The translations under genes were made by a program, and so were the position numbers. Under the pieces are notes generated by a model. That model searched no databases, was not told where the DNA came from, and saw only the letters and a program-made list of their open reading frames with translations. From Clostridia bacterium (GTDB lineage: Bacteria; Bacillota; Clostridia; Oscillospirales; Acutalibacteraceae), in assembly GCA_017556785.1 (NCBI GenBank), contig JAFYMD010000106.1, forward strand, positions 1-35,217: a stretch of 35,217 bases of DNA, in the 5' to 3' direction. Below, piece by piece: positions 1,808 to 35,217 of the stretch. Numbering within the stretch: position 1 is the stretch's first letter; each line of letters begins with the position of its first letter.

Positions 1808-3163
1808 ATGAAGCGATTTTTGTCGATACTGCTGATTTTTAATTTTATAGTGACCATTTCCACCACCTCGCAAGCCATTCAAACACCCGCTTACATCTAC
1901 GGTGACGTAGACCGTGACGGCAAAGTTACCGCCGCCGATGCGCTTGTTACCCTACAAGTTGTGGTGGGAAAAACTTATTTGGAACGAGACGGTTACTATG
2001 CCGCCGACGTAACGGGCGATGTTTTTACCTTGGGGTATTTTGACCACACCGCCGAAGATGCCCTGCTCATTTTAAAATACGTTGTGGGCAAAATCAATCG
2101 TTTCCCTGCAGAAGATTTGGATCCCAACGCCCCCCCTGCCACGCCCGATTTCACCCCCGACGGGGTCTTAACGTCGGGGCAAGAGGTTGATTTTGTATTA
2201 GACATTCCCGAAGGGCGAAACATTAAAATTTTGCAACTGTGTGACCTGCAACCCACCTATCTGGAAGCGGGCGAGGTCACCCGCCACGGATACAGCGGTC
2301 CTTTTGGCGCCACCATGAGCCAAACGGTGTGGCCCTATGTGACCGAAGCAATCAACGCCACAACCCCCGACTTGATCGTATTGAGCGGTGACAACGTGGA
2401 GGGGGCTTTTGACGACACCGGCGCCGAATGGGAAGAACTCTGCGATATGATGGATTCTTACCAAATTCCATGGATGGTTCTGTTTGGCAATCACGACCGT
2501 GAAAGCATAGTCGGTACCACTTGGCAAAAAGCCATGTTAGCACAAAGCGAATATTGTCTGTTTGCCTCGGCTGATTGTACGGGGGATTCCAACTACACCG
2601 TAGTCCTTCGTCAAGGAGGCGAATACAAGTACGTTTTGTGGGCGCTGGACACCAACGGCACCAACGCCGCCTTGCTAAACGGAAATCCCCAAGCCGATTT
2701 AATTTGCACCGAATCGGGTCTGCAATCGGATCAGATCAACTGGATCAAAAACACCGCCTACGGCATTGAGTACGATTTGGGAAAACAGATTCCCTCGCTC
2801 ATGTTCATGCACATTTCTCCCGCTTGCGCTTCAACTGCGCTGAACAAATATTATCCCGAATATATGGAACTTCCCTTTACCCCCACCGAAGAGGGCGACT
2901 TTGGTATTACCACCGAAATTCCCGGGGGTTGGGGCAGCACCGATTTGGACAAAATCGCCGCCAACATGGGATGCAAAGGTATGTTTTTCGGGCATCAACA
3001 CCAAGTAGCTCTCAGCATTGTTCAAGATGAGATTCGCTATACGTGGGGGCTAAAAAGCAGTACCAATTCGTATTTGGATCGCACCATGGTCGGCAGTACG
3101 TTAATTACCATAGATCAAAACACAAACCAATTTGACGTAACCTATTTGTTCAGTCATTTGTGA
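1808..3163 (+). CDS. Secreted metallophosphoesterase (calcineurin-like) with an N-terminal dockerin module
   Basis: Signal peptide MKRFLSILLIFNFIVTISTTSQA. A dockerin pair follows: GDVDRDGKVTAADALVTLQVVVGK ... AADVTGD...TAEDALLILKYVVGKINRFP. Phosphoesterase motifs are LCDLQ (variant of DxH), LSGDNVEG (GDxx), FGNHD, FMHISP and FFGHQHQ (GHxH). Confidence 0.85.
   Translation: MKRFLSILLIFNFIVTISTTSQAIQTPAYIYGDVDRDGKVTAADALVTLQVVVGKTYLERDGYYAADVTGDVFTLGYFDHTAEDALLILKYVVGKINRFPAEDLDPNAPPATPDFTPDGVLTSGQEVDFVLDIPEGRNIKILQLCDLQPTYLEAGEVTRHGYSGPFGATMSQTVWPYVTEAINATTPDLIVLSGDNVEGAFDDTGAEWEELCDMMDSYQIPWMVLFGNHDRESIVGTTWQKAMLAQSEYCLFASADCTGDSNYTVVLRQGGEYKYVLWALDTNGTNAALLNGNPQADLICTESGLQSDQINWIKNTAYGIEYDLGKQIPSLMFMHISPACASTALNKYYPEYMELPFTPTEEGDFGITTEIPGGWGSTDLDKIAANMGCKGMFFGHQHQVALSIVQDEIRYTWGLKSSTNSYLDRTMVGSTLITIDQNTNQFDVTYLFSHL
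1898..2107 (+). other. Dockerin module (N-terminal position, second Ca-loop degenerate)
   Basis: Residues 31-100 of the 451-aa protein. The first repeat DVDRDGKVTAADAL is canonical. The second repeat is interrupted: DVTGDVFTLGYFDHTAEDAL. Confidence 0.75.
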
Positions 3164-3178
3164 TAACCAAAAAACAAA

Positions 3179-5093: not shown

Positions 5094-5122
5094 TGTATAT
5101 CACACTATAAAGAAAAAGTCAA
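5094..5122 (-). promoter_or_regulatory. Putative promoter of the ABC exporter gene
   Basis: The minus strand reads TTGACT (5122-5117), a 17-nt spacer, then TATACA (5099-5094), preceded by TGa. The -35 lies inside one arm of the upstream terminator hairpin. Confidence 0.4.
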
Positions 5123-5151
5123 TGGTTTTGTAAAAAAACCATTGACTTTTT
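5111..5151 (-). terminator. Rho-independent terminator after the DUF4838-like gene
   Basis: A perfect 16-bp stem, AAAAGTCAATGGTTTT (5114-5129) with AAAACCATTGACTTTT (5135-5150), and a 5-nt loop. On the minus strand it is followed by TTTTTCTTTAT. Confidence 0.65.
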
Positions 5152-5167: not shown

Positions 5168-6790
5168 TTAAGCAAGTTCCGCCATTTTATCGGTCACAAA
5201 ATTGTCCACCGTGATTTTCCATTCTTCCACCCGCACCAAACCGCTCTTACGGGCTTGGTCGGCAAATTTGGCAAGCATGGCTTTGCGGTTTTCTTTGGTG
5301 TCGTACTTCAAACATACACCGGTGTAGTAAAGAGGTAGACGGGCGGTTTTAACACGGAACAAGGTTTCGGGGTCGGCTGCCACCGCTGTTTCGGCTTGAT
5401 CGAACAACTCGCTATACTGAAAGAACAGTTCTTCGGTCATAAAGGTTTCGGCGGCATCTTGGGGTTCGCCGAAAATATTTAAAAGACCGCCACCTGCTTC
5501 CATGGCATCGTGCATTACGTTGATATATTCCAAAATAAAGGGAGCGGCTTGTTTATAATACCCCTCTACAAATTCACGGATTACCTCATTTTCGTCCCGA
5601 TAAGGATCCCACATCATTTTGGCAAGCAAATAGCCCCGCAGTTCGCAGAATTCGCCCCCTTCTTCACGGTTGCATTGACTGAACAGCGAACGCACGTTGT
5701 TTTCTACGAAATAGCGAATGTTTTTCGGGATCACCCGCAGATTGGGGAAAGGATTCACCAAATTATGGAACTGAATGCAGTAATCCCACAAGAACAAATT
5801 CCCGCAGATTTCTTTCCAATCCAACATAGCTTGACGGTTGTTCACCGTACCGGGTTGCATACATTCCCCAAAGGGAGTGCCACGGTTGGATTCAATGTTG
5901 CACAACATGATTTGCACGTTGTCGGCAGGTTTCATGTGCTTGGGCGCTTTGGTGGAATATTGATATGCCAGCGTAGAAATAATTTTGTCGGGGAACTCGG
6001 CCGCCACCTTGTTAACAAAGGTAAGCAGAGAGCCCATGGGAGCTTCTTCACGGTCGTCCAACTTTTTGCACTCGTCGCACAAGCAATGGTAGCCGCTATC
6101 GTTGGAGCTCACCGACCAATATTTGGCTTGTGGCTTTTGATCCATGAATTTTTTCAGGTTTTTTACCGCAATGTCAAACACGTCGGGATTGGTGCAACAA
6201 ATTTGGGTGAATTCTTTTTGACGGCCGCCGTTAAAATAGGCAAAGTATTCGGGATGCTCGTCATAATATTCTTTCACCGGCACCAGTTTGTCAAAAGAGT
6301 GATCCCAAAATCCCCACTCGGCATGATCCCACATAGCGGTCATTTTGTGCTTTTCGGCAAAGGTTTTGTCCACAAATCCTTTATAATACACCTCGCGGTA
6401 TTGGAGGATTGGCTGAAATTCATAATCGTCAAACAAGACCGACAAATTGGCGTCAAAGGGGACGTATTCCACGTCTTTGGTGTAATAACGGCACCCTACG
6501 ATCCGTTCCAAGAAATCGTATACCGCATACACGGCGGCTTGCTCATTTTTGGCTTCAAAAATCAGATTTTTGCCGTTCAAGTGATAGGCAAAGCCGGCAT
6601 CACCATGATCGACCTCTACAAAAAATACAAAAGGACGCACGTCTTCTACCGGCGAAACCGCAAGACGGCCGCCTGTGATTTTTTCAATGTAATTCAAAAA
6701 AATGTCGGTGGCGCGGGCCCAATCATTTTTCATAACTACCGCATAGGGTTTTTTGTTTTCGGTAAACACAAAGGGAAGGATACTGCTCAT
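5168..6790 (-). CDS. DUF4838-like protein (putative glycoside hydrolase-related, GH20b-like N-terminus), cytoplasmic
   Basis: 540 aa with no signal peptide. Blocks such as HSFDKLVP, CTNPDV, WSVSSNDSGYHCLCDECKKL and LWDYCIQFHNLVNPFPNL...NVRSLFSQCN...GEFCELRGYLLAKMMWDP match my recollection of DUF4838 proteins. The RBS GAAAGGAG precedes ATG 6790. Confidence 0.65.
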   Translation of the reverse strand: MSSILPFVFTENKKPYAVVMKNDWARATDIFLNYIEKITGGRLAVSPVEDVRPFVFFVEVDHGDAGFAYHLNGKNLIFEAKNEQAAVYAVYDFLERIVGCRYYTKDVEYVPFDANLSVLFDDYEFQPILQYREVYYKGFVDKTFAEKHKMTAMWDHAEWGFWDHSFDKLVPVKEYYDEHPEYFAYFNGGRQKEFTQICCTNPDVFDIAVKNLKKFMDQKPQAKYWSVSSNDSGYHCLCDECKKLDDREEAPMGSLLTFVNKVAAEFPDKIISTLAYQYSTKAPKHMKPADNVQIMLCNIESNRGTPFGECMQPGTVNNRQAMLDWKEICGNLFLWDYCIQFHNLVNPFPNLRVIPKNIRYFVENNVRSLFSQCNREEGGEFCELRGYLLAKMMWDPYRDENEVIREFVEGYYKQAAPFILEYINVMHDAMEAGGGLLNIFGEPQDAAETFMTEELFFQYSELFDQAETAVAADPETLFRVKTARLPLYYTGVCLKYDTKENRKAMLAKFADQARKSGLVRVEEWKITVDNFVTDKMAELA

Positions 6791-6826
6791 AAGGGAAGAC
6801 TCCTTTCACATATAAACTACAGTTTT

Positions 6827-6930: not shown

Positions 6931-8595
6931 TCATGATGCTTGAACAATACCTTCTACGGTTTGTTGCAGGGTTTGGATCTTTTCTTTTGCGATCTGCTTG
7001 GTTTCACCATTGGCAAACAGATAAAATTTCAGTTTCGGCTCTGTGCCGGACGGACGAATGATCACCGAACATTCATCGTTTAGCTCAAATGCCAACACGT
7101 CGGATTTCGGCAAGCCGTCTACGCCGGCCAAATAATCGGTACGATTTCGTAGGTTAAACCCGCCAAACGAATCACCGACACGGCGCATAGAAACCATAAA
7201 ATCTTTCATTTTTTGCATTCCTACTTCCCCTTCAAAGGTAAAGGAAAGAAGGGAATTCAAACTATATCCGTAAGTATTGTAAATTTCGGCCAGTTTTTCG
7301 GCAAGGCTTACGCCGAGGGATCGATAAAAACCGCACATTTCGCAAATCAAAAGCGCCGCATTCACACCGTCCTTATCTCTTACGTGAGAGCCGCTTAAAT
7401 AGCCACAGCTTTCTTCAAAGCCAAAGAGATAGCGTTCCTTTTGTCCCGCTTGCTCCAATTCACCGATCTTCTCGCCAATAAACTTGAAACCGGTCAGCAC
7501 GTTTACCATCTCTACCCCATAGTTTGCGGCAATTTTTTCGGCAAGCAAAGTGGTTACAATGGTTTTTACACAAAGGGGATTTTGGGGCATGGTTCCCATT
7601 TCGGTTTTTCTGCGGCAAATATAATCAAACAGAAGAATGCCTACCTCGTTGCCCGTGAGCAATTGATAATCATTTCCTTGCTTTACGGCTACCCCTACGC
7701 GGTCGCAGTCGGGGTCGGTAGCAAGCAAAATTTCGGCATTGTGCTTCTTGGCGTAGGTTAGTCCCAATGCCATGGCTTCGGGCATTTCGGGATTGGGAAA
7801 CGGGCAGGTGGGGAAATTTCCGTCGTGCTCTGCCTGTTCGTTCACCACAATGATATTTTGATACCCGTTTCGCTTCAAAATATCGGTCACCGGCTCCATG
7901 CCTGTGCCGTTAAGAGGCGTATAAACCACCGAGATGGTTTTGTCGGTGTTCTCGGCAAGAGACAGCTCGGTTACCGAAGCAATGAATTTTTCATACACTT
8001 CTTCGGGAACTTCATGGATCTTCTCCCCTGCTTGTTCGGGCAAGGATTCAAAATAGCCGAGACGGGAAATTTCATGGTAAATTTCGTCCGCCGCTTTGGT
8101 GGTTATCTGACAACCGTCTGCCCCATACACCTTATAGCCGTTATAAACGGCAGGATTATGGGAAGCGGTTATCATAATCCCTGCGTTGCATCCCAACTCC
8201 CGAACCGCAAAAGAAAGGGTCGGGGTCGGAAGAGGACGGTTGAATAAAAATACCGTAATATTTTTGTTGCTTAACACCTTGGCCGCGGTTTCGGCAAACA
8301 GTTTGGATTTGATTCGTGTATCGTAACCAATGGCGACCTTTTTTTCGCCCGAACCGGTATTCGAAATAAAATTAGCAAGTCCCAAGGTGGCACGAGCAAC
8401 GGTATATACGTTCATGCGGTTGGTGCCCGCACCGATTTTGCCACGAAGTCCTCCGGTTCCAAACTCCAATTCTTTAAAAAACGCATCGTTGATTTTAGCT
8501 GAATCGTTTTTGATTGCCAACAGTTCTTCTTTTAAATCTGCATCGGCCAAGGCATTTTGGCACCATTCTTCAAACAAATTGTTGATATTTGCCAT
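6931..8595 (-). CDS. Alpha-D-phosphohexomutase (phosphoglucomutase/phosphomannomutase, PgcA-like)
   Basis: All four superfamily motifs are visible. They are the active-site Ser loop ITASHNP, the metal loop DPDCDR, the sugar loop GFEESCG and the phosphate loop RPSGTEP. I start it at ATG 8595 (MANINNLF) because GAGGAG lies 6 nt upstream. The track start at 8613 adds 6 codons without an RBS. Confidence 0.9.
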   Translation of the reverse strand: MANINNLFEEWCQNALADADLKEELLAIKNDSAKINDAFFKELEFGTGGLRGKIGAGTNRMNVYTVARATLGLANFISNTGSGEKKVAIGYDTRIKSKLFAETAAKVLSNKNITVFLFNRPLPTPTLSFAVRELGCNAGIMITASHNPAVYNGYKVYGADGCQITTKAADEIYHEISRLGYFESLPEQAGEKIHEVPEEVYEKFIASVTELSLAENTDKTISVVYTPLNGTGMEPVTDILKRNGYQNIIVVNEQAEHDGNFPTCPFPNPEMPEAMALGLTYAKKHNAEILLATDPDCDRVGVAVKQGNDYQLLTGNEVGILLFDYICRRKTEMGTMPQNPLCVKTIVTTLLAEKIAANYGVEMVNVLTGFKFIGEKIGELEQAGQKERYLFGFEESCGYLSGSHVRDKDGVNAALLICEMCGFYRSLGVSLAEKLAEIYNTYGYSLNSLLSFTFEGEVGMQKMKDFMVSMRRVGDSFGGFNLRNRTDYLAGVDGLPKSDVLAFELNDECSVIIRPSGTEPKLKFYLFANGETKQIAKEKIQTLQQTVEGIVQAS

Positions 8596-9644
8596 TATAA
8601 CTCCTCGGTGCACAAAGCGAGCAGTTCATCCACGTGAGCGGTAGCAACACACTCAACCGTATCACTTGCGCCATAGTAAATTTTCACCTGACCGTCATCT
8701 TCCAAAATCATGCCGCCGGGGAAAATCACGTTTTGTCTGAATCCCTCGTCGGTTTCATAGGGAAGTTCGGGAGCGATCAAAGGACTCTTGCTCATACCAA
8801 TTACCTTGGAAGGGTCTTCCAAATCCAGCAGAGCGATCCCTGCGGTATAGCGCTTAGTCCAGGTAAGATCCCAAGTGGTTTGCCCTCTGCCTTCTCGTTC
8901 CACGTCAACCGCGTGGAAGGTAATCAACCAGCCTTTATCGGTTTTCACGGGAGGGGCGGCAGGGCCGATTTTGTTGTTGGCATACGGTACGTTTTCGACC
9001 CCCAGCACCAGTTGGCTTTCCCCCCAGAATTTCAGGTCGGGAGATTTGGAAATCCACATATCAAAGCGGTCTCTGCCGCCGCGACCGTATACAGGGAAAG
9101 GCCGTTCCAAACGATAGTAATATCCTCCGATTTTTTCGGGGAAAAGCACCATGTTGCGGTTGTCGGGCACGGTTGCGCTAATGATTTCGTAACCGGAAAA
9201 ATCGTCCTTTACCTTGGCAATTGCCCCACGAATACCATGATGAGTGTCCATAGCAAGGCAAAGATAAATCTCACCGTCGATCACGGTCAATCGGGGATCA
9301 TACAAGCGCAAAATGTCGGGTACGTCTTTTTCTTTCCCCAGCATATTTTTGCCCACTTGATAGTCCACCAGGGGAACTTCTTTTACCTGCCAATTGGTAA
9401 CACCGTCATCGCTGAAAGCAATGCCAACGGAAGTCCCTTTAAACCCAATTTTTTGGTTAACAAATTTATCGCTGTCGGTTCCGTAATCGTTACGGAACAC
9501 CATCACGTATTTTCCGTTGATTTTTTCAACGCCTGCGTTAAAAATCAAAGCGGCGTCATAAGGAATATCATCCTTGGTTAAAATCGGTTTTTCTAATTTT
9601 TTAAGACAATCTGCACTTTTCAGAATGGGTTCCCAAATAGCCAT
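8595..9644 (-). CDS. GH130 family beta-mannoside phosphorylase-like protein
   Basis: About 349 aa and cytoplasmic. The N-terminus KPILTKDDIPYDAALIFNAGVEKINGKYVMVFRND and the overall five-bladed-propeller-like repeat pattern resemble GH130 enzymes (mannosylglucose, mannooligosaccharide and Man-GlcNAc phosphorylases). Start is at ATG 9644 (MAIWEP); the track start is a TTG 9 nt upstream. The stop TAA overlaps the downstream ATG (TAATG at 8597-8593). Confidence 0.75.
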   Translation of the reverse strand: MAIWEPILKSADCLKKLEKPILTKDDIPYDAALIFNAGVEKINGKYVMVFRNDYGTDSDKFVNQKIGFKGTSVGIAFSDDGVTNWQVKEVPLVDYQVGKNMLGKEKDVPDILRLYDPRLTVIDGEIYLCLAMDTHHGIRGAIAKVKDDFSGYEIISATVPDNRNMVLFPEKIGGYYYRLERPFPVYGRGGRDRFDMWISKSPDLKFWGESQLVLGVENVPYANNKIGPAAPPVKTDKGWLITFHAVDVEREGRGQTTWDLTWTKRYTAGIALLDLEDPSKVIGMSKSPLIAPELPYETDEGFRQNVIFPGGMILEDDGQVKIYYGASDTVECVATAHVDELLALCTEEL

Positions 9645-9723: not shown

Positions 9724-10851
9724 TTATTGATTCGAGGCAACTGCTTGATAGGCAATATGCAACCAACCTGCATGCTCTTGGTTACCGGTGTCGGAGCCGC
9801 CCCCTTCGGGCAACCAGCTTTCCCGTACCACTTGGTCGCAACAATCTTCCAAGAAAATCAGCAATTCTTGCAAGCGGTCGGTATAGCCCATTTTTTTGCA
9901 ATACATCATTTCCCAAGCAAGCCCTTTGCCCAGCACGTGGGTACCTTTGGCGGCAGGGGCAAGTTCGGTTTCAAAGGCGGTGAAACTGTCTAACATTTGG
10001 TATTTGCCATAATATTCCACATAACCGTATTTCAGATAAGCCTGATAGGTGTTCTCTAACATCTCGGGGTCGGCGGCATACCAATCGCAACTCATGGGAG
10101 CCAAATTCACCCACGAAAACCCGAGAATATCCCGACGGGCCGCGTTGGGATTGGCATCAATAGACTTTTGACTGCGACCAATAAGCTCGGCATACATCTT
10201 TTTGCCGTCTACCTCTCCTACCAGGAAGTTATGCACACCCTTTACAATGGTAGCGGCGGCAGATTCCCACACCTTGGCGTTTTCGGGGTCAGTTTCGGCT
10301 ACCAACTGTGCCAACTCGTGCAAGGCTTGGGAAGCGTACACGTTGGTGAGCAAGTCGTAGCATTGGAAATACGAACGGTCACGGGAATGCTCTAAACTTT
10401 GGTTAAACAACAAACCGTAGGGATTATCCAAAGCCCCATTTTGCAAAAAGTAGTGGGCAAAGATTGTTACCCGCTCATAGGAATTTTCCAAAAATGCCTT
10501 GTTTTCGTCGGTTTTGGGAGCGGTGTTGGCAAAGGTCACCCACGTATGCAAAAAGAAGAAGGTGGCATCTGCCTGACATTTCATGCAGGGATTACGATGG
10601 GCAGGGTCCAGCACGTGAATAAGATAATCAAAGCCGTGTTGATTGTGATAATCCACGGTGTATTCCATGATTTTGCGGGCAAGGTCATAGTCCCCACGCA
10701 AAACGTGGCACAGTGCGTGTACCGAAGCATCCCGTCCGTACATGCCGCCGTAAGCACCCGTTACCGAAGTGGCGGCATAGCCGTCTTCCCGAATGCGGTC
10801 GGCCAGGGAACGATAGGTGTTTTCAAACAGCAAATGAATTTTTTCGGTCAT
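9724..10851 (-). CDS. Uncharacterised enzyme-like protein, paralog 1 of 3 (putative six-hairpin glycosidase-like fold), cytoplasmic
   Basis: 375 aa with no signal peptide and the RBS GAGGAGAA. It shares these blocks with 10921-12057 and with the middle of 12072-15020: GMYGRDASVH, LEHSRD, YDLLTNVYASQALHELA, GFSWVNLAPMSCDWY, GKGLAWEMMYCK and GGGSDTGNQEHAGW. Confidence 0.8.
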   Translation of the reverse strand: MTEKIHLLFENTYRSLADRIREDGYAATSVTGAYGGMYGRDASVHALCHVLRGDYDLARKIMEYTVDYHNQHGFDYLIHVLDPAHRNPCMKCQADATFFFLHTWVTFANTAPKTDENKAFLENSYERVTIFAHYFLQNGALDNPYGLLFNQSLEHSRDRSYFQCYDLLTNVYASQALHELAQLVAETDPENAKVWESAAATIVKGVHNFLVGEVDGKKMYAELIGRSQKSIDANPNAARRDILGFSWVNLAPMSCDWYAADPEMLENTYQAYLKYGYVEYYGKYQMLDSFTAFETELAPAAKGTHVLGKGLAWEMMYCKKMGYTDRLQELLIFLEDCCDQVVRESWLPEGGGSDTGNQEHAGWLHIAYQAVASNQ

Positions 10852-15020: not shown

Positions 15021-15054
15021 AAAAAAAGTCCTCCTATTACTTGACATTATCTCT

Positions 15055-26655: not shown

Positions 26656-29600
26656 ATGAAAATGAAACGAAGTATCTCTATGATTTTGGTGCTGGTTTTG
26701 CTTTTGTCGGTCGTGGGAGTGGCTCTTCCCATTACGGCAACCGCAAGCAATACGGCGGAGGAGTTGGACTATATGTATTTGAAAAACTTAAATGGCCCTT
26801 CGGGGGTCGCCTTAGGCGGTATTGGGGTTGGGTATTACGAAATCGATCCTACAGGCACGGTCACCCGAAACTGTGTGAACAATATTCACAAATCCTTTGC
26901 CGACAAGCCAAACGGCTTTTTGGTGGGGGTATGGGACGGTAAAACCGCCACCCGTTTACAACGGGACAGTGCCACCACCTACGGTATGAAAGGGTATGCC
27001 GACAGTTATTATACCGGCTTGTGGCCCTATATGAACATTGACTTCAAAAATAGCCATTCCGGCACGGCCGACATGGGTTTTTCTGCTTATTCAGGACTGA
27101 CCGCTCACAACGTAAAAGACAGTTCTTTACCCGTAGTGTATTACGACGTCGTGTTAAAAAATGACGGTAGCTCGGCCAAGACCATGTCCACCATACTGAC
27201 TTGGGGTGACTTGATTGGTCGTGGCATGCGTGATTCGGACAAAGAAACCTTGTCCGACTTAAACGGTGAATCGGAAGATTGGTACGATATGCCCACTCCC
27301 CAAACCTATGCCAAAGGGGTACAGGTTTCAAACGGCGGCACGACCTATACCGGTGTTATGCAATATGCCAAAGGACAATTGTTACCCGAACGTGCTACCT
27401 TCCAAAACTACAACAATGCCTTTATGATTTTGGCAGAAGATACTGCCGCCACCGACGTTACCATTTTAAAGAATTTTAACGTTGCTAGCAGCAACGCTTT
27501 GTCCTCTTATACTTCTTCGGGCCGATTGAATGCTTACGATGCAGGGGAAGTGGCCTTGTCCGCCCCCACCAACGGTAGCCGTACCACCACCAACGGCAGT
27601 GCGGTTGCGGTATCTGCCAGCGTACCTGCCGGACAATCGGTGACCGTAAAATTGATGGTTTCTTGGTTTGCTCCCGAAATTATCGAGGCGCAATATGCAG
27701 GTATGCACCGATTCTCTACCTGTGATTTTAATAAATATTATCATAATTCTTTTTCTACCATTGAAGCCATGACTTCCTATGCCATCGGCATTCGGGATGC
27801 CCAAAGAGCAGGCATTCGGGAGTGGCAAGATCCCATTCTCAACAGTTCCATGCCCAAGTGGTTGCAATTCAAACAAATCAACAGCGGTTACACCCTGTAT
27901 AGTTGCGGTGTACTGAACAAACGGGGCAATTTCTCTACCTTAGAGGGGGAAATGGGCGGCTACGGCGGCACCATGGACCAAAAGATGAGTTCTTACCCTG
28001 TATATGAAAAATTATTCCCTCAATTAAACTTGACCGAAAACCGTCAGTTTGCCAACGTAACAGGGTCAAACGGCGAGATTCAACACTTTGACATTCACTA
28101 CTATTACGGAATGTCTGACTATGAAAACAAAGACAATCCCACCCCTGCCGGCAGTATGATCGACAACTCCGGCACCTGGATGATGCAAATGTGGAATCAC
28201 TATCGGCAAACCGCCGACGTCACCTATTTGCAACAATATTATTCGGTGATGAAGCAGTCCATGAAATTCCTGCAAGCACGTTGTCCTGCAGGTACGCACA
28301 TTCCTTCTTACAACACCACCTATGACGATTATTCCCATCCCCAAGTGATGGTCTATTCGGGTACCGTATGGCTGCACATGCTGGATTTGGCACAACGTTG
28401 GGCAACTTTGATGGGCGAATCCGACCAAGCCGCAGCCTATGCCGCCGAATACAAGGAAGCCTTTGATGATGTGAACCTCTACTACAAGGCCTGGTCAGCC
28501 GACCTTGGCTACGATGCGTTTTATGCCTACGGCAGTAACGGGGAATTCCTTTCCTCCAACGGTCAAAGCGGCAACGTAGAAAGTGCCATTATGTTCTCGG
28601 GGGCTATGGCAGGGCAGTTCATCAGCCGTATGAACGGACAAGGGGACGTGGTTCCCTTTGACCAATTCGTTTCCCACATGAAGACCTTCCTGCAAACCTC
28701 GGTGCAACAAACCAACGATTACATGGCACCGAAGGTTTATAACATCCGTACCGAGCAAGGGTTGGATTGGCTCAGCTCCAACTGTTGGCCTTTCTACCTG
28801 GAAAGCTATGGCGGCATGGCAGCCATTCAAGCAGGGTATTTGGAAGACGGTTTGGAAATTTTGGAACATACCTCTTTGGTAGACCTGCGATTGGGCTACA
28901 CCTGGACTCGTAGTTTGTGGAGCCGCGCTTATATTACCTATATGACCGCTCCCGTTAGCTGGATGATCGGTGACGTGTTGGCAGGCGCCAGCGTAGATGC
29001 TCCCAATCATACCTTGACCTTGGGACCCTCTTGCTTGGCAAGTGAAGGGGTAGGCGTTAGTGATAACCTGACCGTTACCCTTTACTATCCCAAATATTGG
29101 GCAACCGTGAACTACAACAAAACCAGCGGTTCGTTTACTTATAAGATCATCAAAACCTTCTACGAAAACGGAGAACAACCCATTACCATCAACAAGGTGA
29201 TCGCTTCCCCCGCAGGGGTTCAAACCGCCGATGCCCAAACCATTACGCTGGATAGCACCTTTACGGTGACCGAAGGAGCGGTGTTGGATTTGTCGGCAAC
29301 CATGGACAAATTCCAAGGGGTGACCAAAGAAAAACTGTTGCAACCCGTGGCAGAATACGAGCCTCCCAAAGAGGAAGTGGTTGCTAACGGTACAGGGCTT
29401 ACCACTCGTCTGACCGCAAACGGTCAAACCACGTCCCTGCCCAAAACCGAAAGTGTCAACCTGCGATTTAACAAAGACAATCTGCCTGCCGAAAATGTAA
29501 CCGATGCTTACACCTTGGAACTGCAAGGACGCATTTTGCCCAAATACAGCCAAAAATATCAGTTGCTGTTTGAATATACGGGCAATCCGGACGATCTGAT

Positions 29601-31425
29601 TATTGAAATCGACGGCAAAGTAGTAACCGACTACGGCAGCGATATTTCGGCGGTGGAATCCCAACAATTCACCCCAACGGCAGGCTGTGCCCTGCGGGTG
29701 GTTACCATGGGGCTGGAAGGGGGCAACCTCTATTCGGTAAAGATCACCTACAAAGGGGACGTGTCCGATGCTACCGACGATGTGCTTCGCTTCCTTTGGT
29801 GGTCCACCACGCAACAAATGAGTCTGGTCATCAAAGAACGGATGTATCCCGTGATTCAGTTTGACGAAATAATCAACGGGGTAGAATATACCGACGGTAC
29901 GGTGCAAGTGGAAAATGAACACGTGGCGTATACCACCCCCGGCACCTATGCCATTTACAGCGGCATCGACTTTGGCGCAGGCGGAAAAGATTATCTCTTT
30001 AAAATCCGCGCCGCCGCCATTCGCAACGAATTGTCTCAAGGGGGCACTTTGCAGATCCGTCGGAACGACAAAAACGGCGAGTTGCTGGGTAGTCTGGAAT
30101 TTACTCCTACCTCCGATACCGGATGGGGTAATTATCAATGGTTCACCACCTCTCTGCACAGCGATCAGGGATTGCAAGGCTTCGAGGATATTTGTCTGGT
30201 GTTCCAACCTGTGGTCAGCAACGGATTTTTGATGAACTACGATCAGTTAACCTTCCTCCGTTCGGGTGTGGGTGGCAAAATTGTAGATGCCACCTCGGTT
30301 ATCGACGGGAAATCCTACACCGATGCCACCGCCGAAATTGAAGGCGACCACATGGCTTGGACCGGGCCGAACACCTATGCTTTGTATACCGGATTGGACT
30401 TTGGCGAAACCGCCCGAAACTTTACCTTTAAGATCAAGGCAGGCGCCATTAACAACGAGCACTCTCAAGGCGGCACCATGGAACTGCGGCTTGATGGGGA
30501 AAACGGTACGCTACTGGGTGTGTTGGACTTTACTCCCACCGGCGATTGGGCAAAATACGAGGAACAAACCCTGCAACTGAATCAACCCTTGTCGGGAGTA
30601 CAAAATATTTGTCTGGTATTTAAGCCGGTCAGTTCCTTCTTGTTTAACTACACCACCTTCACCTTTGAAGGGGAGCGCATTCTTTCTTCCTTTGACAAGT
30701 TTACCGACGTGTCAACTCCCATCTATCATTTAGGATTAGCGGGGGCAACCGAATCGGATAGTCATTGGACCGATTATCGCTATATTGCCCAAGAAATCGT
30801 GCCTACCAAGGCGGATTTGTACGGTGCGGCATTGGCATTAAATCTCACCGCAGGTAAAGCAACCGTGCATATGGAATTGCGGGAACAACTGAACGGAAAT
30901 GCCGTGGCAGTAACCGAGCAAACCATTGAAAGCAAGGGCAACGGCGTGGCATTTTATGATGTTCGTTTTGATGAAAAAGTCACCGTAGAGCCGCAAAAAC
31001 TGTACTATCTGGTGTATTACCTGACCGCACGGGAGGCAGGCAACGTTTGTATTGTCCACGGTGCTAATTTGGGTGCCAATAAGGCAGAATATATCGGTTA
31101 TGTGTGGAAAATGGCAGACGGTCAACCTGTTTCTTATTCCGCAGGGGACAAGAATCTGACCTTTGGCTTTGAATTGATTACCACGGCAGAAGAACCCGTG
31201 AATCCGCCTGTGGCAATCCCCTACGGCGACGTAGACGGTGACGACAGAGTCTCTGCCACCGACGCTTTGGAAGTGTTAAAATCGGTGGTAGGCAACGTGA
31301 CCTTGACCGAAGAACAAACGGTGCTTGCCGACGTGGACGGAGATGAGAAAATCTCCTCTGCCGACGCACTATATATCCTAAAAAAAGTAGTTGGTAAAAT
31401 CGACAAGTTCCCGGTGGAGGAATAA
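26656..31425 (+). CDS. Secreted 1589-aa GH116-like glycoside hydrolase with PA14-like module, two CBM6-like modules, a further beta-sandwich module and C-terminal dockerin
   Basis: Signal peptide MKMKRSISMILVLVLLLSVVGVALPITATA. The GH116 N-terminal-domain signature is ALGGIGVGYYEI ... GLWPYMNIDF ... VKDSSLPVV. A DUF608-like six-hairpin region follows: LEGEMGGYGGTMDQ, EIQHFD, NTTYDDY and VWLHMLDLAQRWATLMG. The RBS AAAGGAGGAA precedes ATG 26656. Confidence 0.75.
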   Translation: MKMKRSISMILVLVLLLSVVGVALPITATASNTAEELDYMYLKNLNGPSGVALGGIGVGYYEIDPTGTVTRNCVNNIHKSFADKPNGFLVGVWDGKTATRLQRDSATTYGMKGYADSYYTGLWPYMNIDFKNSHSGTADMGFSAYSGLTAHNVKDSSLPVVYYDVVLKNDGSSAKTMSTILTWGDLIGRGMRDSDKETLSDLNGESEDWYDMPTPQTYAKGVQVSNGGTTYTGVMQYAKGQLLPERATFQNYNNAFMILAEDTAATDVTILKNFNVASSNALSSYTSSGRLNAYDAGEVALSAPTNGSRTTTNGSAVAVSASVPAGQSVTVKLMVSWFAPEIIEAQYAGMHRFSTCDFNKYYHNSFSTIEAMTSYAIGIRDAQRAGIREWQDPILNSSMPKWLQFKQINSGYTLYSCGVLNKRGNFSTLEGEMGGYGGTMDQKMSSYPVYEKLFPQLNLTENRQFANVTGSNGEIQHFDIHYYYGMSDYENKDNPTPAGSMIDNSGTWMMQMWNHYRQTADVTYLQQYYSVMKQSMKFLQARCPAGTHIPSYNTTYDDYSHPQVMVYSGTVWLHMLDLAQRWATLMGESDQAAAYAAEYKEAFDDVNLYYKAWSADLGYDAFYAYGSNGEFLSSNGQSGNVESAIMFSGAMAGQFISRMNGQGDVVPFDQFVSHMKTFLQTSVQQTNDYMAPKVYNIRTEQGLDWLSSNCWPFYLESYGGMAAIQAGYLEDGLEILEHTSLVDLRLGYTWTRSLWSRAYITYMTAPVSWMIGDVLAGASVDAPNHTLTLGPSCLASEGVGVSDNLTVTLYYPKYWATVNYNKTSGSFTYKIIKTFYENGEQPITINKVIASPAGVQTADAQTITLDSTFTVTEGAVLDLSATMDKFQGVTKEKLLQPVAEYEPPKEEVVANGTGLTTRLTANGQTTSLPKTESVNLRFNKDNLPAENVTDAYTLELQGRILPKYSQKYQLLFEYTGNPDDLIIEIDGKVVTDYGSDISAVESQQFTPTAGCALRVVTMGLEGGNLYSVKITYKGDVSDATDDVLRFLWWSTTQQMSLVIKERMYPVIQFDEIINGVEYTDGTVQVENEHVAYTTPGTYAIYSGIDFGAGGKDYLFKIRAAAIRNELSQGGTLQIRRNDKNGELLGSLEFTPTSDTGWGNYQWFTTSLHSDQGLQGFEDICLVFQPVVSNGFLMNYDQLTFLRSGVGGKIVDATSVIDGKSYTDATAEIEGDHMAWTGPNTYALYTGLDFGETARNFTFKIKAGAINNEHSQGGTMELRLDGENGTLLGVLDFTPTGDWAKYEEQTLQLNQPLSGVQNICLVFKPVSSFLFNYTTFTFEGERILSSFDKFTDVSTPIYHLGLAGATESDSHWTDYRYIAQEIVPTKADLYGAALALNLTAGKATVHMELREQLNGNAVAVTEQTIESKGNGVAFYDVRFDEKVTVEPQKLYYLVYYLTAREAGNVCIVHGANLGANKAEYIGYVWKMADGQPVSYSAGDKNLTFGFELITTAEEPVNPPVAIPYGDVDGDDRVSATDALEVLKSVVGNVTLTEEQTVLADVDGDEKISSADALYILKKVVGKIDKFPVEE
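29390..29830 (+). other. PA14-like module
   Basis: YTLELQGRILPKYSQKYQLLFEYTGNPDDLIIEIDGKVVTDYG...LEGGNLYSVKITYKGD...LRFLWWS. This fits the PA14 pattern (DD..i.iDG, Y.v.i.Y, l.W). Confidence 0.55.
29869..30675 (+). repeat. Two tandem CBM6/CBM35-like modules (29869-30265 and 30277-30675)
   Basis: Copy 1 reads INGVEYTDGTVQVENEHVAYTTPGTYAIYSGIDFGAGGKDYLFKIRAAAIRNELSQGGTLQIRRNDKNGELLGSLEFTPTSDTGWGNYQWFTTSL...ICLVFQP. Copy 2 reads IDGKSYTDATAEIEGDHMAWTGPNTYALYTGLDFGETARNFTFKIKAGAINNEHSQGGTMELRLDGENGTLLGVLDFTPTGDWAKYEEQTLQL...ICLVFKP. This layout is typical of CBM6-type sugar-binding modules. Confidence 0.65.
31222..31413 (+). other. Dockerin module (C-terminal)
   Basis: YGDVDGDDRVSATDALEVLKSVVGNVTLTEEQTVLADVDGDEKISSADALYILKKVVGKIDKFP. 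Confidence 0.85.
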
Positions 31426-31439: not shown

Positions 31440-31478
31440 AAACTCACCCTCTTTCCCGAGGGTGAGTTTTTCGTTTTC
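31440..31478 (+). terminator. Rho-independent terminator after the GH116-like gene
   Basis: ACTCACCCTC (31442-31451) pairs with GAGGGTGAGT (31458-31467) around a 6-nt loop. It is followed by TTTTTCGTTTT. Confidence 0.8.
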
Positions 31479-31566: not shown

Positions 31567-34500
31567 ATGAAACGCTTACTCACGTTTGTGATGGTTTTGT
31601 GCTTGCTTTGCTCATTGGCAGTGCCTTTTGACGCATCAGCCGCCATTCCGCTTGACCAGTCTATTGACGGACTGAACAATACCTCTTTGGTCGTTTTGCC
31701 TGCCGGGAACACCGGTACCAATTATCCCAAAGGCAAAATCGTTACCGACAACTATACCGAAGGTGACGGCAGTTTATATTCCAACTGGCCTGCGCCCGCC
31801 AGCGGAACTCTTGCAGGAACCCAAAACGGCATCAACATTTCCCTTGTTGGTGTAGGCGGCAGTGCGGGGCTGAATATTGCCGCCGCTACCTACGTTTCTT
31901 TTGACCTGTATCTGCATGGGGTAAGCTTTACCGCCGGTAAAGATGCCCTGATTCGTTTTGGCTCGCAAGCCTCGTGGAACTCCACCGACTTGGGCTCGGT
32001 TTATTTTACCGACCAAGCCAAAAATATGAAAGAGGGTTGGAACCACTTTACCATTCCTCTTCCTGCTTCTTGGAACCACACCTCGGTAAAAAATATTTGG
32101 ATTGCTTTTGACAACGGCTGTACCGCTGTTACCCTTACCGCGAATGATGCTTATGTATTGTTAGACGACCTGCGGTTGTTAAACAACGAGGGGAAAGCCA
32201 TTAACGACGTGCGTAACCAAGCCAAGCCGGTGATTGCCGCCATTGCCAAGGCATATAAAACCTCTGCCAAGGCCGATATTACCGCCGCTCGCAATGCTTA
32301 TAACGCTTTGTCTGCCGCCGCTAAGGCTTACGTAACCAATTTGGATAAGTTGGATGCCGCCTCGGTTGCTTATGACAAGCAATTCCGCTCGCTGGATACC
32401 CTTGTGGGTATAAATGGGGGCAACGGCACCCAAAACCGCACCATTGAACCGACCAACTATATGGAAGGCAAAGGTGCCGGTAAATGGGAATATACCGCCG
32501 CTTCCAATGGGTTGTTCTGGTATGTATATTGTGATAATCACACCACCGACACGGTGGGTATGGATATTTCCGGTGCGGAATATATCGTCTTCGACTTCTT
32601 TGTCAGCAATGCTTCTGCTTGGACGTTGGCAGGGGACACCCGCATCAACTTCCGTGACTCCACCGACGGGTGGAATTCCAAGGCGGGACAGGTAACTGCC
32701 ACCAATATGAATAACACCTTTAAAGCCATGAAAACCGGTTGGAACCATGTGGCTTTGCCCATTGACCGCTCTGCCGCCACGGTAAATAACGTGTGGGGAT
32801 TTCGTATGTATTTTGCCAGCGGTACGGCACCTGCCGGTTTTTATACCATGATTGACGACATTCGGTTTGTAAGCGCATCCTACGTAAATAGTCAACACTA
32901 TGCCGATACCATTGCCGCAAAAAAGGTTGCCGCCCAAATCGGTTCCTTGCCCAACAGCGCTTCGGCTGCTCAAATTCATTCGGTGCAAAATGCGTATTTT
33001 GCCTTAACCGATGCGCAACGTCCCTTGGTTGCCAATATTGCTCATCTGAACAAACTGGTGAACAACCTTTCGGCAACTTCGGTGAATATTCAATATCGTC
33101 ACCTGAACAACGCCGAACGCACCTCTCAAGAAGCCGCTACTACCACCGAAACCACCACCATGCGGGTAGAAGGTACGGGGGCCGCTAAATTCGTGCACGC
33201 AGTTGACCGCACCAACGGTTTGTATTGGTATGTATATTGCGAATCTTCTGCCGCCTCTACCGGCACCAATATTGCAGGGGCAACCCATATTACCTTTGAC
33301 TTTTACGTCAGCGATCCCTCAAAATGGAGCATTGGCACGGCAGATATGCGTCTGTCGGTACGGAACGTTGCTTCCACCACGTGGGACAACTCTTGTACCC
33401 AGGTTTCTGCCGCCAATATGAAAACCGCATTCTCGAACGTAAAACAAGGGTGGAACCATATTGTTATGCCCTTGGAATCTTTGTTGACCAACGATGCTTT
33501 CGCATTCCGTATGTATATGACCGGCGGTAGTGCCAAGCAAGGCTTTTACACCATCATTGACGACGTTCGGTTTGTGAACCGCACCTATCTTGCATCGGCA
33601 GACTATGCTGACCGTATTGCCGCCAAAAAGGTTTCGGGTTTGATTTCTCAACTCACCTCCCAAAGCGGTTCCACCCAAATTTCTGCCGCCCGCACCGCTT
33701 ACAATGCCTTGACTACCACCCAACAAGGCTACGTTTGCAACTACGATTGGCTTACCGCTTACGAAGCAGGTAACGCCCCTGCAGGAAGCGCTCAACAAAC
33801 CTTCCAAACCATTCCTGCCGAACATTTAGGAAATCTGGCAGGCTATGCCAAGGGCGAATTCTCTTTGGCGATTTTAAGTGACTTGCACTATGCCGTAAAC
33901 TGGAATAGCCAACAAAAAGATATTTACTTCAACTCCATGAAATATATTTTGGACCGTGCTGATTCCGAAAACACCCTCATGACCATTCAACTGGGGGATA
34001 TGACCAGCGGTAACCGCTATGCCGAATGGCTTACCGTGCGCGAAGGTTTCCAAATGCTGGTAGACGGCGGCATGCCCTATGCCACCACCATTGGTAACCA
34101 CGATATCGGTAGCGGTGCCAATGCAGCCTATAATGCCTTCTTGCCTTACAGCGAGCAGGTTGCCGAAAACCCCTATTTGGCTGGCGCCAAAGAAGAAGGC
34201 AAAACCGACAACTTGTACTACACCTTTAAGGTGAACGGTGTAAAATACATGGTGCTTGTGCTGGCTTGCTATCCCAAAGATGCGGTGCTCAGTTGGGCAG
34301 ACAGTGTGGTAAAAGCCCACTCGGATTACAACGTAATTTTGGTTACCCACTCTTACCTGCAAATGAAAAACGGTACTTTGGGTTACACCGAAGAAGTGGA
34401 AGCCCTCGCCGCCGGTTTTAAGGGCATTAACGTGTGGAATAACCTGATTAAAGGTAATCCCAACATCTTTATGACCTTCAGCGCCCACAACTCCTATCCC

Positions 34501-35217
34501 GAACCGGGTAAAAACGGGGTTGGCTTGTTGACCTCTAAAAACGATGCCGGTCGCAACGTATACCAATTCTTGGTACCCGACCCTCAAAACTATGAAAACA
34601 CCTACGGCGGTTTGGGTAGTTTATTCATGCTTCGTTTCTCCAACGCAGGCAAAACCGTAACCGGTGAATATATCGCCACCCGCTATAACAAAGACTTTAT
34701 TGGTTACGGCACCAACAATTTCAGCATTACCCTTGACCCCATTCCCGACTACACCGCCATGGCCAAAGCGGTAGATGACAAAATCGCCGCCTTGCCTTCC
34801 AATATTACCCTTTCTAATGAAGCAGCGGTTACCGCGACGCGAAGCGCTTACAATGCGTTGGTAAACGAAGCCAAAGCCAAAGTAACCAAATTGAGTGTGC
34901 TCACCGCCGCCGAAACCAAGATTGCCGATCTGAAAGCGGCAAAAACGGTACAAGACAAGATTGCCGCTTTGCCCTCTACCATTGCGCTTACCAATGAATC
35001 GGCGGTTACTGCGGCACGGAGTGCATATAACGCCTTGACCTCCACCCAAAAATCTTACGTAACCAACCTAAGTAAGTTGACTGCCGCCGAAACCACCATT
35101 ACCAACCTAAAAGCGGCAAAAACGGTGCAAGACAAGATTGCCGCCTTGCCTTCTACCATCACTCTAAACAATGAATCGGCAGTTACTGCGGCACGGAGTG
35201 CTTACAATGCCCTTACC
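31567..35217 (+). CDS. Secreted protein of at least 1217 aa (3' end outside the window): three CBM-like beta-sandwich modules, a metallophosphoesterase domain and tandem 59-aa helical repeats
   Basis: It is not in the ORF track because it has no stop codon. I translated the frame by hand from ATG 31567 to 35217 and found 1217 codons with no stop. The signal peptide is MKRLLTFVMVLCLLCSLAVPFDASA. The long minus-strand ORFs listed here have low-complexity G/V/R-rich translations and are shadow ORFs. Confidence 0.85.
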   Translation, partial: MKRLLTFVMVLCLLCSLAVPFDASAAIPLDQSIDGLNNTSLVVLPAGNTGTNYPKGKIVTDNYTEGDGSLYSNWPAPASGTLAGTQNGINISLVGVGGSAGLNIAAATYVSFDLYLHGVSFTAGKDALIRFGSQASWNSTDLGSVYFTDQAKNMKEGWNHFTIPLPASWNHTSVKNIWIAFDNGCTAVTLTANDAYVLLDDLRLLNNEGKAINDVRNQAKPVIAAIAKAYKTSAKADITAARNAYNALSAAAKAYVTNLDKLDAASVAYDKQFRSLDTLVGINGGNGTQNRTIEPTNYMEGKGAGKWEYTAASNGLFWYVYCDNHTTDTVGMDISGAEYIVFDFFVSNASAWTLAGDTRINFRDSTDGWNSKAGQVTATNMNNTFKAMKTGWNHVALPIDRSAATVNNVWGFRMYFASGTAPAGFYTMIDDIRFVSASYVNSQHYADTIAAKKVAAQIGSLPNSASAAQIHSVQNAYFALTDAQRPLVANIAHLNKLVNNLSATSVNIQYRHLNNAERTSQEAATTTETTTMRVEGTGAAKFVHAVDRTNGLYWYVYCESSAASTGTNIAGATHITFDFYVSDPSKWSIGTADMRLSVRNVASTTWDNSCTQVSAANMKTAFSNVKQGWNHIVMPLESLLTNDAFAFRMYMTGGSAKQGFYTIIDDVRFVNRTYLASADYADRIAAKKVSGLISQLTSQSGSTQISAARTAYNALTTTQQGYVCNYDWLTAYEAGNAPAGSAQQTFQTIPAEHLGNLAGYAKGEFSLAILSDLHYAVNWNSQQKDIYFNSMKYILDRADSENTLMTIQLGDMTSGNRYAEWLTVREGFQMLVDGGMPYATTIGNHDIGSGANAAYNAFLPYSEQVAENPYLAGAKEEGKTDNLYYTFKVNGVKYMVLVLACYPKDAVLSWADSVVKAHSDYNVILVTHSYLQMKNGTLGYTEEVEALAAGFKGINVWNNLIKGNPNIFMTFSAHNSYPEPGKNGVGLLTSKNDAGRNVYQFLVPDPQNYENTYGGLGSLFMLRFSNAGKTVTGEYIATRYNKDFIGYGTNNFSITLDPIPDYTAMAKAVDDKIAALPSNITLSNEAAVTATRSAYNALVNEAKAKVTKLSVLTAAETKIADLKAAKTVQDKIAALPSTIALTNESAVTAARSAYNALTSTQKSYVTNLSKLTAAETTITNLKAAKTVQDKIAALPSTITLNNESAVTAARSAYNALT
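31642..33760 (+). repeat. Three ~705-bp (about 235-aa) diverged tandem units, each a CBM-like module plus a helical AARxAYNAL segment
   Basis: The GWNH codons recur at 32038, 32740 and 33451, giving offsets of 702 and 711 bp. Motifs shared by units 2 and 3 are G(L)(F/Y)WYVYC, (I)(V/T)FDF(F/Y)VS, GWNH(V/I), FRMY and GFYT(M/I)IDD(I/V)RFV. Unit 1 is more diverged (YVSFDLYL, EGWNHFTIPL, YVLLDDLRLL). Confidence 0.65.
33856..34740 (+). other. Metallophosphoesterase (calcineurin-like) domain
   Basis: Motifs are AILSDLHY (DxH), IQLGDMTSG (GD), IGNHDIG (GNHD), LVTHSYL (H) and FSAHN (degenerate GHxH). Confidence 0.7.
34780..35217 (+). repeat. In-frame tandem repeat with a 177-bp (59-aa) period, at least 2.5 copies, truncated by the window edge
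   Basis: The KIAALPS codons start at 34780, 34957 and 35134, exactly 177 bp apart. The repeat unit is KIAALPS(N/T)I(T/A)L(S/T/N)NE(A/S)AVTA(T/A)RSAYNAL...(K/S)(V/Y)T(K/N)LS(V/K)LTAAET(K/T)I(A/T)(D/N)LKAAKTVQD. Copies 2 and 3 are also clearly similar at the DNA level. Confidence 0.85.

Follow-up and report, generated by a model that had tools for sequence, protein, structure and literature searches.

The window analysed here, that is, the whole stretch of 35,217 nt, comes from an uncultured gut bacterium of the Acutalibacteraceae; its closest genome is another Acutalibacteraceae metagenome-assembled genome (MAG; L009, 96% protein identity). Six-frame open reading frame (ORF) calling and Pfam/NCBIfam scans defined 20 genes (g01 to g20; Table 1) and reproduced all features and coordinates given in an earlier note on this DNA, including three phosphoesterase domains and two AraC regulators. 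Consensus terminator and hairpin scans, which yield predictions only, suggested at least five transcription units: g09→g04, with the divergent AraC gene g10; g18/g17→g16→g15; g19; g20; and g02. The first of these encodes a secreted dockerin protein (g09) that joins a GH125-like module to an EEP phosphoesterase domain, two cytoplasmic copies of the same module (g08 and g07), and GH130, phosphohexomutase, and DUF4838 proteins; the second places a secreted esterase (g17) in one predicted unit with NagB and NagA. We propose, with chances that appear to us about even, that these two AraC-associated units form a single catabolic route for a phosphate- and acyl-bearing glycan of mannose and N-acetylglucosamine (GlcNAc).

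Four proteins (g02, g09, g17, and g19) combined a signal peptide with a Dockerin_1 match above threshold, and signal peptides were absent from g04, g05, g06, g15, and g16, placing these in the cytoplasm. The earlier note had assigned all three phosphoesterase domains to secreted proteins with dockerins, CBM-like modules or both; signal peptides were found on all three proteins, dockerins on g02 and g09, and CBM-like repeats on g20, which continues past the end of the window, so that its dockerin status is not visible.

Table 1. Genes, domains, predicted hairpins, and repeats of the window
Feature	Position (nt)	Strand	Description
g01			MatE (MATE) pump
g02	1808..3163	+	Signal peptide, dockerin, Metallophos (aa 180-399 = nt 2345-3004)
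Hairpin	between g02 and g03		Terminator-like
g03			Exporter-type ABC protein with fused transmembrane and nucleotide-binding domains
Hairpin	5113..5151	-	17 pairs, terminator-like, after g04; end of the g09-g04 unit
g04	5168..6790	-	Cytoplasmic DUF4838 (GH20-like), Pfam 323 bits
g05	6931..8595	-	Phosphohexomutase (PGM/PMM), Pfam PGM_PMM domains I-IV
g06	8595..9644	-	Predicted GH130 β-mannoside phosphorylase, Pfam 112 bits (cut-off 26)
g07	9724..10851	-	Second cytoplasmic module copy, 58% identity with g08, conserved residues retained
g08	10921..12057	-	Cytoplasmic module copy, (α/α)6 fold in model
g09	12072..15047	-	Signal peptide, DUF4082-like, dockerin, GH125-like module, EEP (Pfam)
g09, EEP (PF03372)	12102-12707		aa 793-994
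g09, module	about 12765-13844		GH125-like
g09, dockerin	13938-14102
g09, DUF4082-like	14637-14852		Weak match
g10	15136..15984	+	AraC regulator divergent from the g09 operon; Pfam HTH_18, HTH_AraC, AraC_binding
g11-g13	16088-21901		Between the two operons: g11, DUF1846 (835 bits to PRK13663); g12 and g13, GH13 and glycogen phosphorylase (GT35)
Hairpin	17581-17626	both	19 pairs, bidirectional, bounds intervening genes
g14	22154-22711		185-aa predicted membrane protein without family match, just downstream of the NagA terminator
Hairpin	22822-22851	-	After g15
g15	22859..23923	-	NagA, GlcNAc-6-phosphate deacetylase; overlaps g16
g16	23920..24642	-	NagB, glucosamine-6-phosphate deaminase
g17	24670..25668	-	Secreted CE1/PHB-depolymerase-like esterase (Pfam, NCBIfam); dockerin 24712-24867
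g18	25796..26554	-	AraC regulator (Pfam) divergent from g19, upstream of g17
g19	26656..31425	+	Signal peptide, GH116 N-terminal domain, partial DUF608, PA14, 2x CBM6, dockerin
Hairpin	31440-31469	+	After g19
g20	31567..35217 and beyond	+	Signal peptide, 3 CBM-like repeats, Metallophos (aa 767-936 = nt 33865-34374), 59-aa linker repeats
Linker repeats	34761-35217		Three tandem 177-nt repeats at the end of g20

The triplicated module and its partners

The module occurs in the window as g07 and g08 (375-378 aa) and as the middle part of g09; the three copies are 47-58% identical and all retain 48 of the 50 family-conserved residues. Eight carboxylates (D42, D96, D167, E223, E315, E345, D355, and E360) are invariant or nearly so across the family, which is rare (68 clusters among 5.8 billion proteins) and is found nearly always in gut Clostridia and otherwise in a few Cohnella and actinomycetes; the hosts are chiefly MAGs from ruminant, horse, deer, and Hadza guts. 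By sequence, the module matched nothing significantly in Pfam, NCBIfam, or the PDB. The best Pfam match of g08 was GH125 (PF06824), which stayed below threshold (E 0.031, 13.6 bits, cut-off 23.4), and the rhamnosidase six-hairpin Pfam model was touched by 7 of 32 module relatives, some of which matched rhamnosidase better than GH125. AlphaFold2, supplied with a 32-sequence alignment, modelled the module as an (α/α)6 barrel (predicted local distance difference test [pLDDT] 93, predicted template modelling [TM] score [pTM] 0.93), for which the top nine Foldseek matches in the PDB were GH125 structures (CpGH125, SpGH125-type, and BT3781; E 1e-8 to 2e-7, identity 11-13%), at TM scores of 0.66-0.71 that hardly distinguish GH125 from GH116, GH15, GH63, and GH100 barrels; the GH116 catalytic domain, GH15-like, GH100, and GH63 structures followed close behind. 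Judged by this model, the module represents a glycosidase-like family of the six-hairpin type that lies outside all current family models, with GH125 as its nearest structural neighbour and homology to GH125 not demonstrable. It resembles the GH125 exo-α-1,6-mannosidases CpGH125, SpGH125, and BT3781 in fold, in structural ranking, and in the type of gene neighbours, but differs from them in sequence and in length (370-380 aa, as compared to about 425 aa).

Gene neighbourhoods were compared in 41 genome loci with 10-kb flanks and in several metagenome contigs, in which ORFs were grouped by all-against-all BLAST and recurrent neighbours were then annotated. An AraC gene adjoined module genes in 13 non-redundant loci. 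A GH38 α-mannosidase gene was found directly upstream of the module in three loci (L017, L019, and L021), a pairing that does not occur in the window itself; these clusters also included an ABC solute-binding protein and permease, a GH37/63-like enzyme, and a small Metallophos_2 protein, with a ROK kinase in L021. This arrangement mirrors the published pairing of GH38 and GH125 genes in N-glycan loci of Firmicutes (PMC5215778) and is the strongest evidence available that the module acts on α-mannosides. Five further loci (L034, L036, L037, L047, and L049) combined a GH2 enzyme with β-mannosidase Ig domains and an ABC importer, and in a second lineage, RUG14132 (L005), GH130 and HAD hydrolase genes adjoined the cytoplasmic module. 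The earlier note had suggested examining whether the genes of the window co-occur across genomes; in the loci compared, the module was seen with EEP, GH130, and esterase as well as with GH38 and GH2, but not with g19 homologues or, outside the window species and L009, with the metallophosphoesterases (MPEs) of g02 and g20.

The g09 architecture (signal peptide, DUF4082-like domain, dockerin, module, and EEP) was kept in L006, L008, L010, L011, and L014, three of which carry a tandemly duplicated EEP, and fusion of module and EEP was found in at least seven loci. The EEP domain of g09 scored 59.8 bits against PF03372 (cut-off 24.5), and its catalytic motifs QE, NTH (NxH), GDFN (GDxN), DN, and SDH were invariant. 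A single-sequence search of the PDB with this domain gave nothing useful; a sequence profile matched uncharacterised bacterial EEPs (3teb and 3g6s), sphingomyelinase C/β-hemolysin, DNase I, and exonuclease III. The AlphaFold2 model of the domain, built on a two-sequence alignment, was of moderate confidence (pLDDT 67, pTM 0.73), and its structural matches were 3teb, TDP2, and 4ruw, followed at ranks 5-7 by BT3783 (3mpr; E 3e-10, TM 0.62).

A roe-deer MAG (L022) encodes a single secreted protein of 2069 aa in which a module, split by a lectin-like insertion, is followed by an EEP and by a C-terminal esterase domain 41% identical to g17; g09 and g17 are linked through this fusion. The L024 locus encodes a secreted DUF4082-module protein and, two genes away, a 1526-aa protein with an MPE domain, two CBM4_9 domains, a dockerin, and DUF4886, a family of SGNH hydrolases (PMC9487903), and in both L032 and L033 a FIVAR-MPE-CBM4_9 protein is encoded within the cluster of secreted proteins of the module. 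Glycosidase, phosphoesterase, and esterase have thus been united at least three times with different phosphoesterase and esterase folds, which argues for a substrate decorated with phosphate and acyl groups and is the strongest support for the central idea of the earlier note, a phosphorylated mannose/GlcNAc glycan.

Other neighbours of the module were seen in smaller numbers of loci. In L006 (11221-14939), L008 (20440 onward), and L010 (11482-15228), a conserved protein of 886-894 aa, with only weak matches to GH14/GH42 (TIM-barrel), is encoded after the module cluster, as is a membrane Acyl_transf_3 protein; neither occurs in the window. Large secreted β-helix proteins (Pect-lyase_RHGA_epim) adjoin module genes in L019 (3738-9524) and L012 (12241-15663) and may be endo-acting partners; SLH domains are present in one of them and a dockerin in the other. 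Near the module cluster of L010 (15273-17246) lies a gene for a CotH kinase-like protein with a dockerin match of 19.7 bits (cut-off 22.9); independently, its dockerin showed BLAST similarity to those of g19 and g02. A GNHD-containing ORF in L037 was considered and rejected, as it proved to encode a radical SAM enzyme. A distant homologue of 548 aa in Actinoallomurus iriomotensis (L054/L048) ends an amino-sugar operon that encodes LacI, an SSF transporter, GlcNAc 2-epimerase, NagB-like, SIS, NagA-like, and ceramidase-like proteins and an unknown gene, and that abuts a myo-inositol catabolic cluster, a context peculiar to this species among the loci examined. An inositol-linked substrate (glycosylinositol phosphorylceramide, glycosylphosphatidylinositol, or mycothiol-like), considered on the basis of this operon, was dropped, as none of those genes lies near the homologue in other actinobacterial loci.

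Intracellular sugar genes and the proposed route

The closest PDB entries of g06 were the phosphorylases TM1225 (1e-40), UhgbMP (1e-31), and Lin0857 (3e-31), as compared to 1e-11 or worse for GH130 hydrolases. An alignment with UhgbMP, whose phosphate site provides the rationale for recognising phosphorylases (PMC4599007), showed conservation of the YDPR aspartate and of three basic phosphate-binding positions (NRN, RP, and H). The g06 protein shares its catalytic Asp and phosphate-binding residues with the GH130_2 phosphorylases for Man-β-1,4-GlcNAc (UhgbMP and BT1033) and for β-1,4-mannooligosaccharides (TM1225 and RaMP2) as well as with Lin0857 (β-1,2-mannobiose), and is about equidistant from β-1,4 (TM1225, UhgbMP) and β-1,2 (Lin0857) enzymes. 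The best NCBIfam model, β-mannobiose phosphorylase, gave 165 bits (cut-off 550), and all equivalog scores were far below their cut-offs. By sequence, g06 is a phosphorylase-type GH130, predicted to cleave a β-1,4-Man-GlcNAc, β-1,4-Man, or β-1,2-Man linkage, among which sequence does not decide. Its stop codon overlaps the start of g05 (TAATG), with a GAGGAG ribosome-binding site visible, so that the two genes are translationally coupled.

NagA (g15) and NagB (g16) both exceeded the cut-offs of their models (TIGR00221, 260.9 bits against 225.65, and TIGR00502, 259.6 bits against 236.9). In GH163 and GH185, DUF4838 is the catalytic domain and is GH20-like, and a cytoplasmic subgroup of such proteins is known (PMC10570127); g04, which has no signal peptide, resembles that cytoplasmic cluster, and a sequence search of the PDB with its DUF4838 domain gave nothing useful. 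The operon of a goat MAG (L014) is of the g09-g08-g04 type, with g04 directly after the cytoplasmic module and without g07, GH130, or phosphomannomutase (PMM), suggesting that the GH130-PMM block is accessory and that DUF4838 is the steadier partner. In another contig of the window species (L001; ENA ERZ28653778), the equivalent of g10 is split into ORFs of 155 and 132 aa (locus 5954-6922) and GH130 into ORFs of 118 and 238 aa (locus 12414-13462); both genes are intact in other contigs, and strain-level inactivation or an assembly error is possible.

In established GH130 phosphorylase pathways, mannose-1-phosphate is handled by PMM, and GlcNAc by NagA and NagB; the gene set of the window follows this logic. 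A route can be outlined from what was observed (domain content, the fold of the module, the order of the genes, fusions, and co-occurrence), with each specificity and the substrate predicted. In its extracellular part, g09 (GH125-like glycosidase and EEP) and g17 (acyl removal), both anchored by dockerins, would unmask and trim the polymer; g09 may take off a mannose cap and then the underlying phosphate, as do an α-mannosidase and BT3783 of Bacteroides thetaiotaomicron on yeast phosphomannan. Fragments would enter through an importer encoded elsewhere. Inside the cell, g07 and g08 would remove α-mannose, g06 would phosphorolyse the remaining β-mannoside to mannose-1-phosphate, and the coupled mutase g05 would convert this to mannose-6-phosphate; g04 would free GlcNAc, and NagA and NagB would take GlcNAc-6-phosphate to fructose-6-phosphate.

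The GH125-like module, the mannoside-enzyme partners, the phosphoesterase and esterase fusions, the coupling of GH130 to PMM, and the g17-NagB-NagA unit all favour the mannose/GlcNAc part of the earlier proposal, and a phosphate- and acyl-bearing glycan of this kind is a reasonable substrate class. The particular glycan can be named only conditionally; the most likely candidates are fungal or yeast mannoprotein glycans, i.e., phosphomannan and high-mannose N-glycans.

The nearest described parallel is the yeast α-mannan polysaccharide utilization locus (PUL) of B. thetaiotaomicron (MAN-PUL2; Cuskin 2015), which encodes BT3783, an EEP-fold phosphatase that acts on phosphorylated high-mannose glycans and has been compared with TDP2 (PMC4978465), together with BT3781 (GH125) and BT3780 (GH130 β-1,2-mannosidase) (PMC4599007). 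Both loci combine an α-mannosidase of the six-hairpin type, an EEP-fold phosphoesterase, and GH130, and BT3781 and BT3783 were among the top structural matches of the module and EEP. However, the host of the window is Gram-positive and uses dockerin display instead of SusC/D, its EEP probably falls into another sequence subgroup and forms one protein with the glycosidase, its GH130 is of the phosphorylase type and coupled to PMM rather than a hydrolase, and an esterase is included. The likeness to the BT3780/BT3781/BT3783 triad is real for folds and gene content and does not extend to demonstrable membership of the BT3783 subgroup. The N-glycan locus of Streptococcus pneumoniae (GH38, GH125, GH92, GH20C, ROK, and ABC importer; PMC5215778) is similar in its cytoplasmic exo-trimming of imported oligomannose, in its GH38-GH125 pair, which resembles the GH38-module pairs of other genomes, and in a GH20-like hexosaminidase (DUF4838 in the window). 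It differs in that the window uses GH130 phosphorolysis, has a surface paralogue of the glycosidase fused to a phosphoesterase, and has no GH38, GH92, ROK, or importer gene.

Dockerin display in Ruminococcaceae and Acutalibacteraceae is familiar from cellulosomes and from the amylosome of Ruminococcus bromii. The window likewise has type I dockerins on secreted glycan-active enzymes, but the cargo is a glycosidase-phosphoesterase, an esterase, and an MPE instead of enzymes for plant fibre or starch; no cohesin or scaffoldin was seen in the window, and cohesin partners were not searched for.

A number of observations weigh against the proposed route. We know of no acylation of yeast mannan, which leaves the esterase unexplained if yeast mannan is the substrate, and of no enzyme activity for any member of the module family. 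Neither phmmer nor the 32-sequence family profile found a solved structure for the module in the PDB, and the structural scores do not clearly separate GH125 from other barrels. BT3783 (3mpr/4c1r) was absent from the EEP profile matches at E<=1, this EEP being nearer to sphingomyelinase and DNase I-like proteins, and the EEP model is of moderate confidence. The window encodes no kinase, none of its 20 proteins has a GH76, GH92, GH99, or GH38 Pfam domain, and there is no sugar importer among its genes (g03 is of exporter type and g01 is a MatE pump), as the earlier note had stated; the left flank, covered by longer contigs of the same organism, added only a pseudouridine synthase and a further dockerin protein. 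The tie between the two operons depends on one fusion protein (L022), flanks of 10 kb are too short to relate the g17-NagB-NagA unit to the module elsewhere, and GH130 and PMM are missing from L006, L008, and L010 as well as from L014.

A bolder version of the proposal, which we put forward tentatively and hold to be rather improbable, is that the module founds a new glycoside hydrolase family and that the dockerin-anchored EEP and esterase fusions are undescribed bifunctional enzymes that uncap and dephosphorylate or deacylate their substrate, by which gut Clostridia, using a cohesin-dockerin system, attack acylated mannose glycans with phosphodiester bridges on fungal or microbial cell surfaces and not plant fibre. 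If these proposals are true, the mannan and N-glycan field would gain a glycosidase family that is as yet unclassified but has clear candidate substrates, and dockerin display in Acutalibacteraceae would extend to phosphorylated, acylated, non-plant glycans. Activities that uncap mannose-6-phosphate glycans are used in the glyco-engineering of lysosomal enzymes, and natural glycosidase-phosphoesterase fusions would be on offer. The combination of module, phosphoesterase, esterase, and mannoside enzymes would also provide a comparative rule that can be tested genome-wide.

Alternative explanations

The phosphoesterases may be scavengers of extracellular DNA, nucleotides, or phospholipids that have only their dockerin display in common with an ordinary salvage pathway for the N-glycan core or β-mannosides. 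We regard this as improbable, while giving it an appreciable chance. The profile matches of the EEP to DNase I, sphingomyelinase C, and exonuclease III are consistent with such a role, its structural neighbours are mostly TDP2 and nucleases, and the MPE profiles, including a PDB profile search with the g20 domain, gave only generic, uninformative matches (Mre11, GpdQ-like, and diphosphonucleotide phosphatase). Dockerin-MPE proteins are also common: the statement of the earlier note that phosphoesterases are rare in ordinary plant-fibre cellulosome-type loci is not supported, as dockerins were found in 7 of 45 multidomain relatives of g02, whose MPE family comprises 1457 representative clusters of secreted Firmicutes MPEs, often in large proteins. 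Scavenging does not, however, account for the covalent fusion of EEP to the module in locus after locus, once with the esterase as well, and the independent recruitment of EEP and MPE folds beside module genes would be hard to explain without a common substrate.

A serious alternative, to which we assign a low probability, is that the target is a phospho-glycan of microbial cell envelopes, broken down as a nutrient or remodelled in the cell's own wall. Such a target could be a teichoic-acid-like or secondary cell-wall polymer with a ManNAc-β-1,4-GlcNAc-P linkage unit, actinobacterial lipomannan or phosphatidylinositol mannosides, or protozoal lipophosphoglycan. Esterase, phosphodiesterase, and glycosidase together would suit acylated, phosphodiester-linked polymers; the Acyl_transf_3 gene after the cluster in three loci, the amino-sugar genes and GlcNAc 2-epimerase in the operon of A. 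iriomotensis, and the sphingomyelinase-like EEP profile matches point in the same direction. The GH38, β-mannosidase-type GH2, ROK, and ABC importer neighbours, on the other hand, fit known routes for N-glycans and oligomannose; the A. iriomotensis context recurred in no other actinobacterial locus, and no teichoic-acid-specific enzymes such as GDPD were found.

The earlier note had treated the whole span 1808-35217 as one system, which would place all five secreted proteins (g02, g09, g17, g19, and g20) and both cytoplasmic sets under common regulation for a single phospho-glycan. Four confirmed dockerin proteins and g20 are indeed clustered in 35 kb, L024 and L032/L033 have secreted MPE proteins next to secreted proteins that carry the module, the L017 cluster includes a small MPE, and the closest homologue of g19 has a GH38 gene at a distance of 7 kb. 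However, predicted terminators set g02, g19, and g20 apart, and glycogen genes and efflux pumps intervene. The 30 homologues of g19 found (<=73% identity) were, in the loci examined, never paired with NagA/NagB, esterase, MPE, or module, and were conserved only with their own AraC gene, the divergent AraC/GH116-like pair being kept in L057 and L058. Paralogy of the g02 and g20 MPEs was considered and rejected, the two being unrelated except for a common GNHD motif; neither was related to the MPEs of L017, L024, or L032, and neither was found near the module outside the window species and L009. A single system of this extent is not supported by these findings and is unlikely, and g02, g19, and g20 are neighbours for which no link to the pathway was demonstrated. 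The g20 MPE is an orphan, g19 appears to be a separate regulon, and g02 is a possible accessory of the pathway.

A locus for acetylated plant β-mannan (glucomannan) of the kind known from Roseburia and Faecalibacterium is very improbable: GH130, PMM, and a CE1-like esterase do occur together, and TM1225 and RaMP2 are among the best GH130 matches, but there is no GH26, GH5, or GH113 mannanase, epimerase, or importer, plant mannan breakdown does not involve NagA/NagB, DUF4838, EEP, or GH125-like modules, and related operons do without GH130 and PMM.

Neighbouring proteins and minor features

The dockerin of g02 scored 25.2 bits (cut-off 22.9) and matched the PDB dockerin 4uyp (E 4e-6), and the gene, situated between terminators, is apparently monocistronic. 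Across the MPE family of g02, the first metal-binding motif, canonically D-x-H, is an invariant D-x-Q, as seen in each of the 45 relatives aligned. The g20 MPE has two close relatives only, both with dockerins. The g19 protein, a distant GH116-like enzyme, matched Glyco_hydr_116N with 98 bits and DUF608 partially (positions 101-285 of 361; 36.7 bits), and its best PDB match was GBA2 (E 1e-12, patchy). With regard to its context, a metagenome scan gave one trivial 1.2-kb match and an exact-protein look-up gave no record.

No role in the proposed route is evident for g01, g03, or g11-g13; in L012 and L014, synteny with the AraC/g09 pair extends to the DUF1846 gene. A binding module common to the N-terminus of g09 and the C-terminus of g19 was considered and rejected, as no similarity was found. 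Scans of the window for tRNAs, Rfam families, and tandem repeats were empty. The linker repeats that run off the end of the window, which were not reported by Tandem Repeats Finder, are 74-81% identical and encode a helical linker with the motif 'DKIAALP...AAR.AYNAL'; this motif also separates the CBM-like repeats of g20 and is found in g09 and its relatives.

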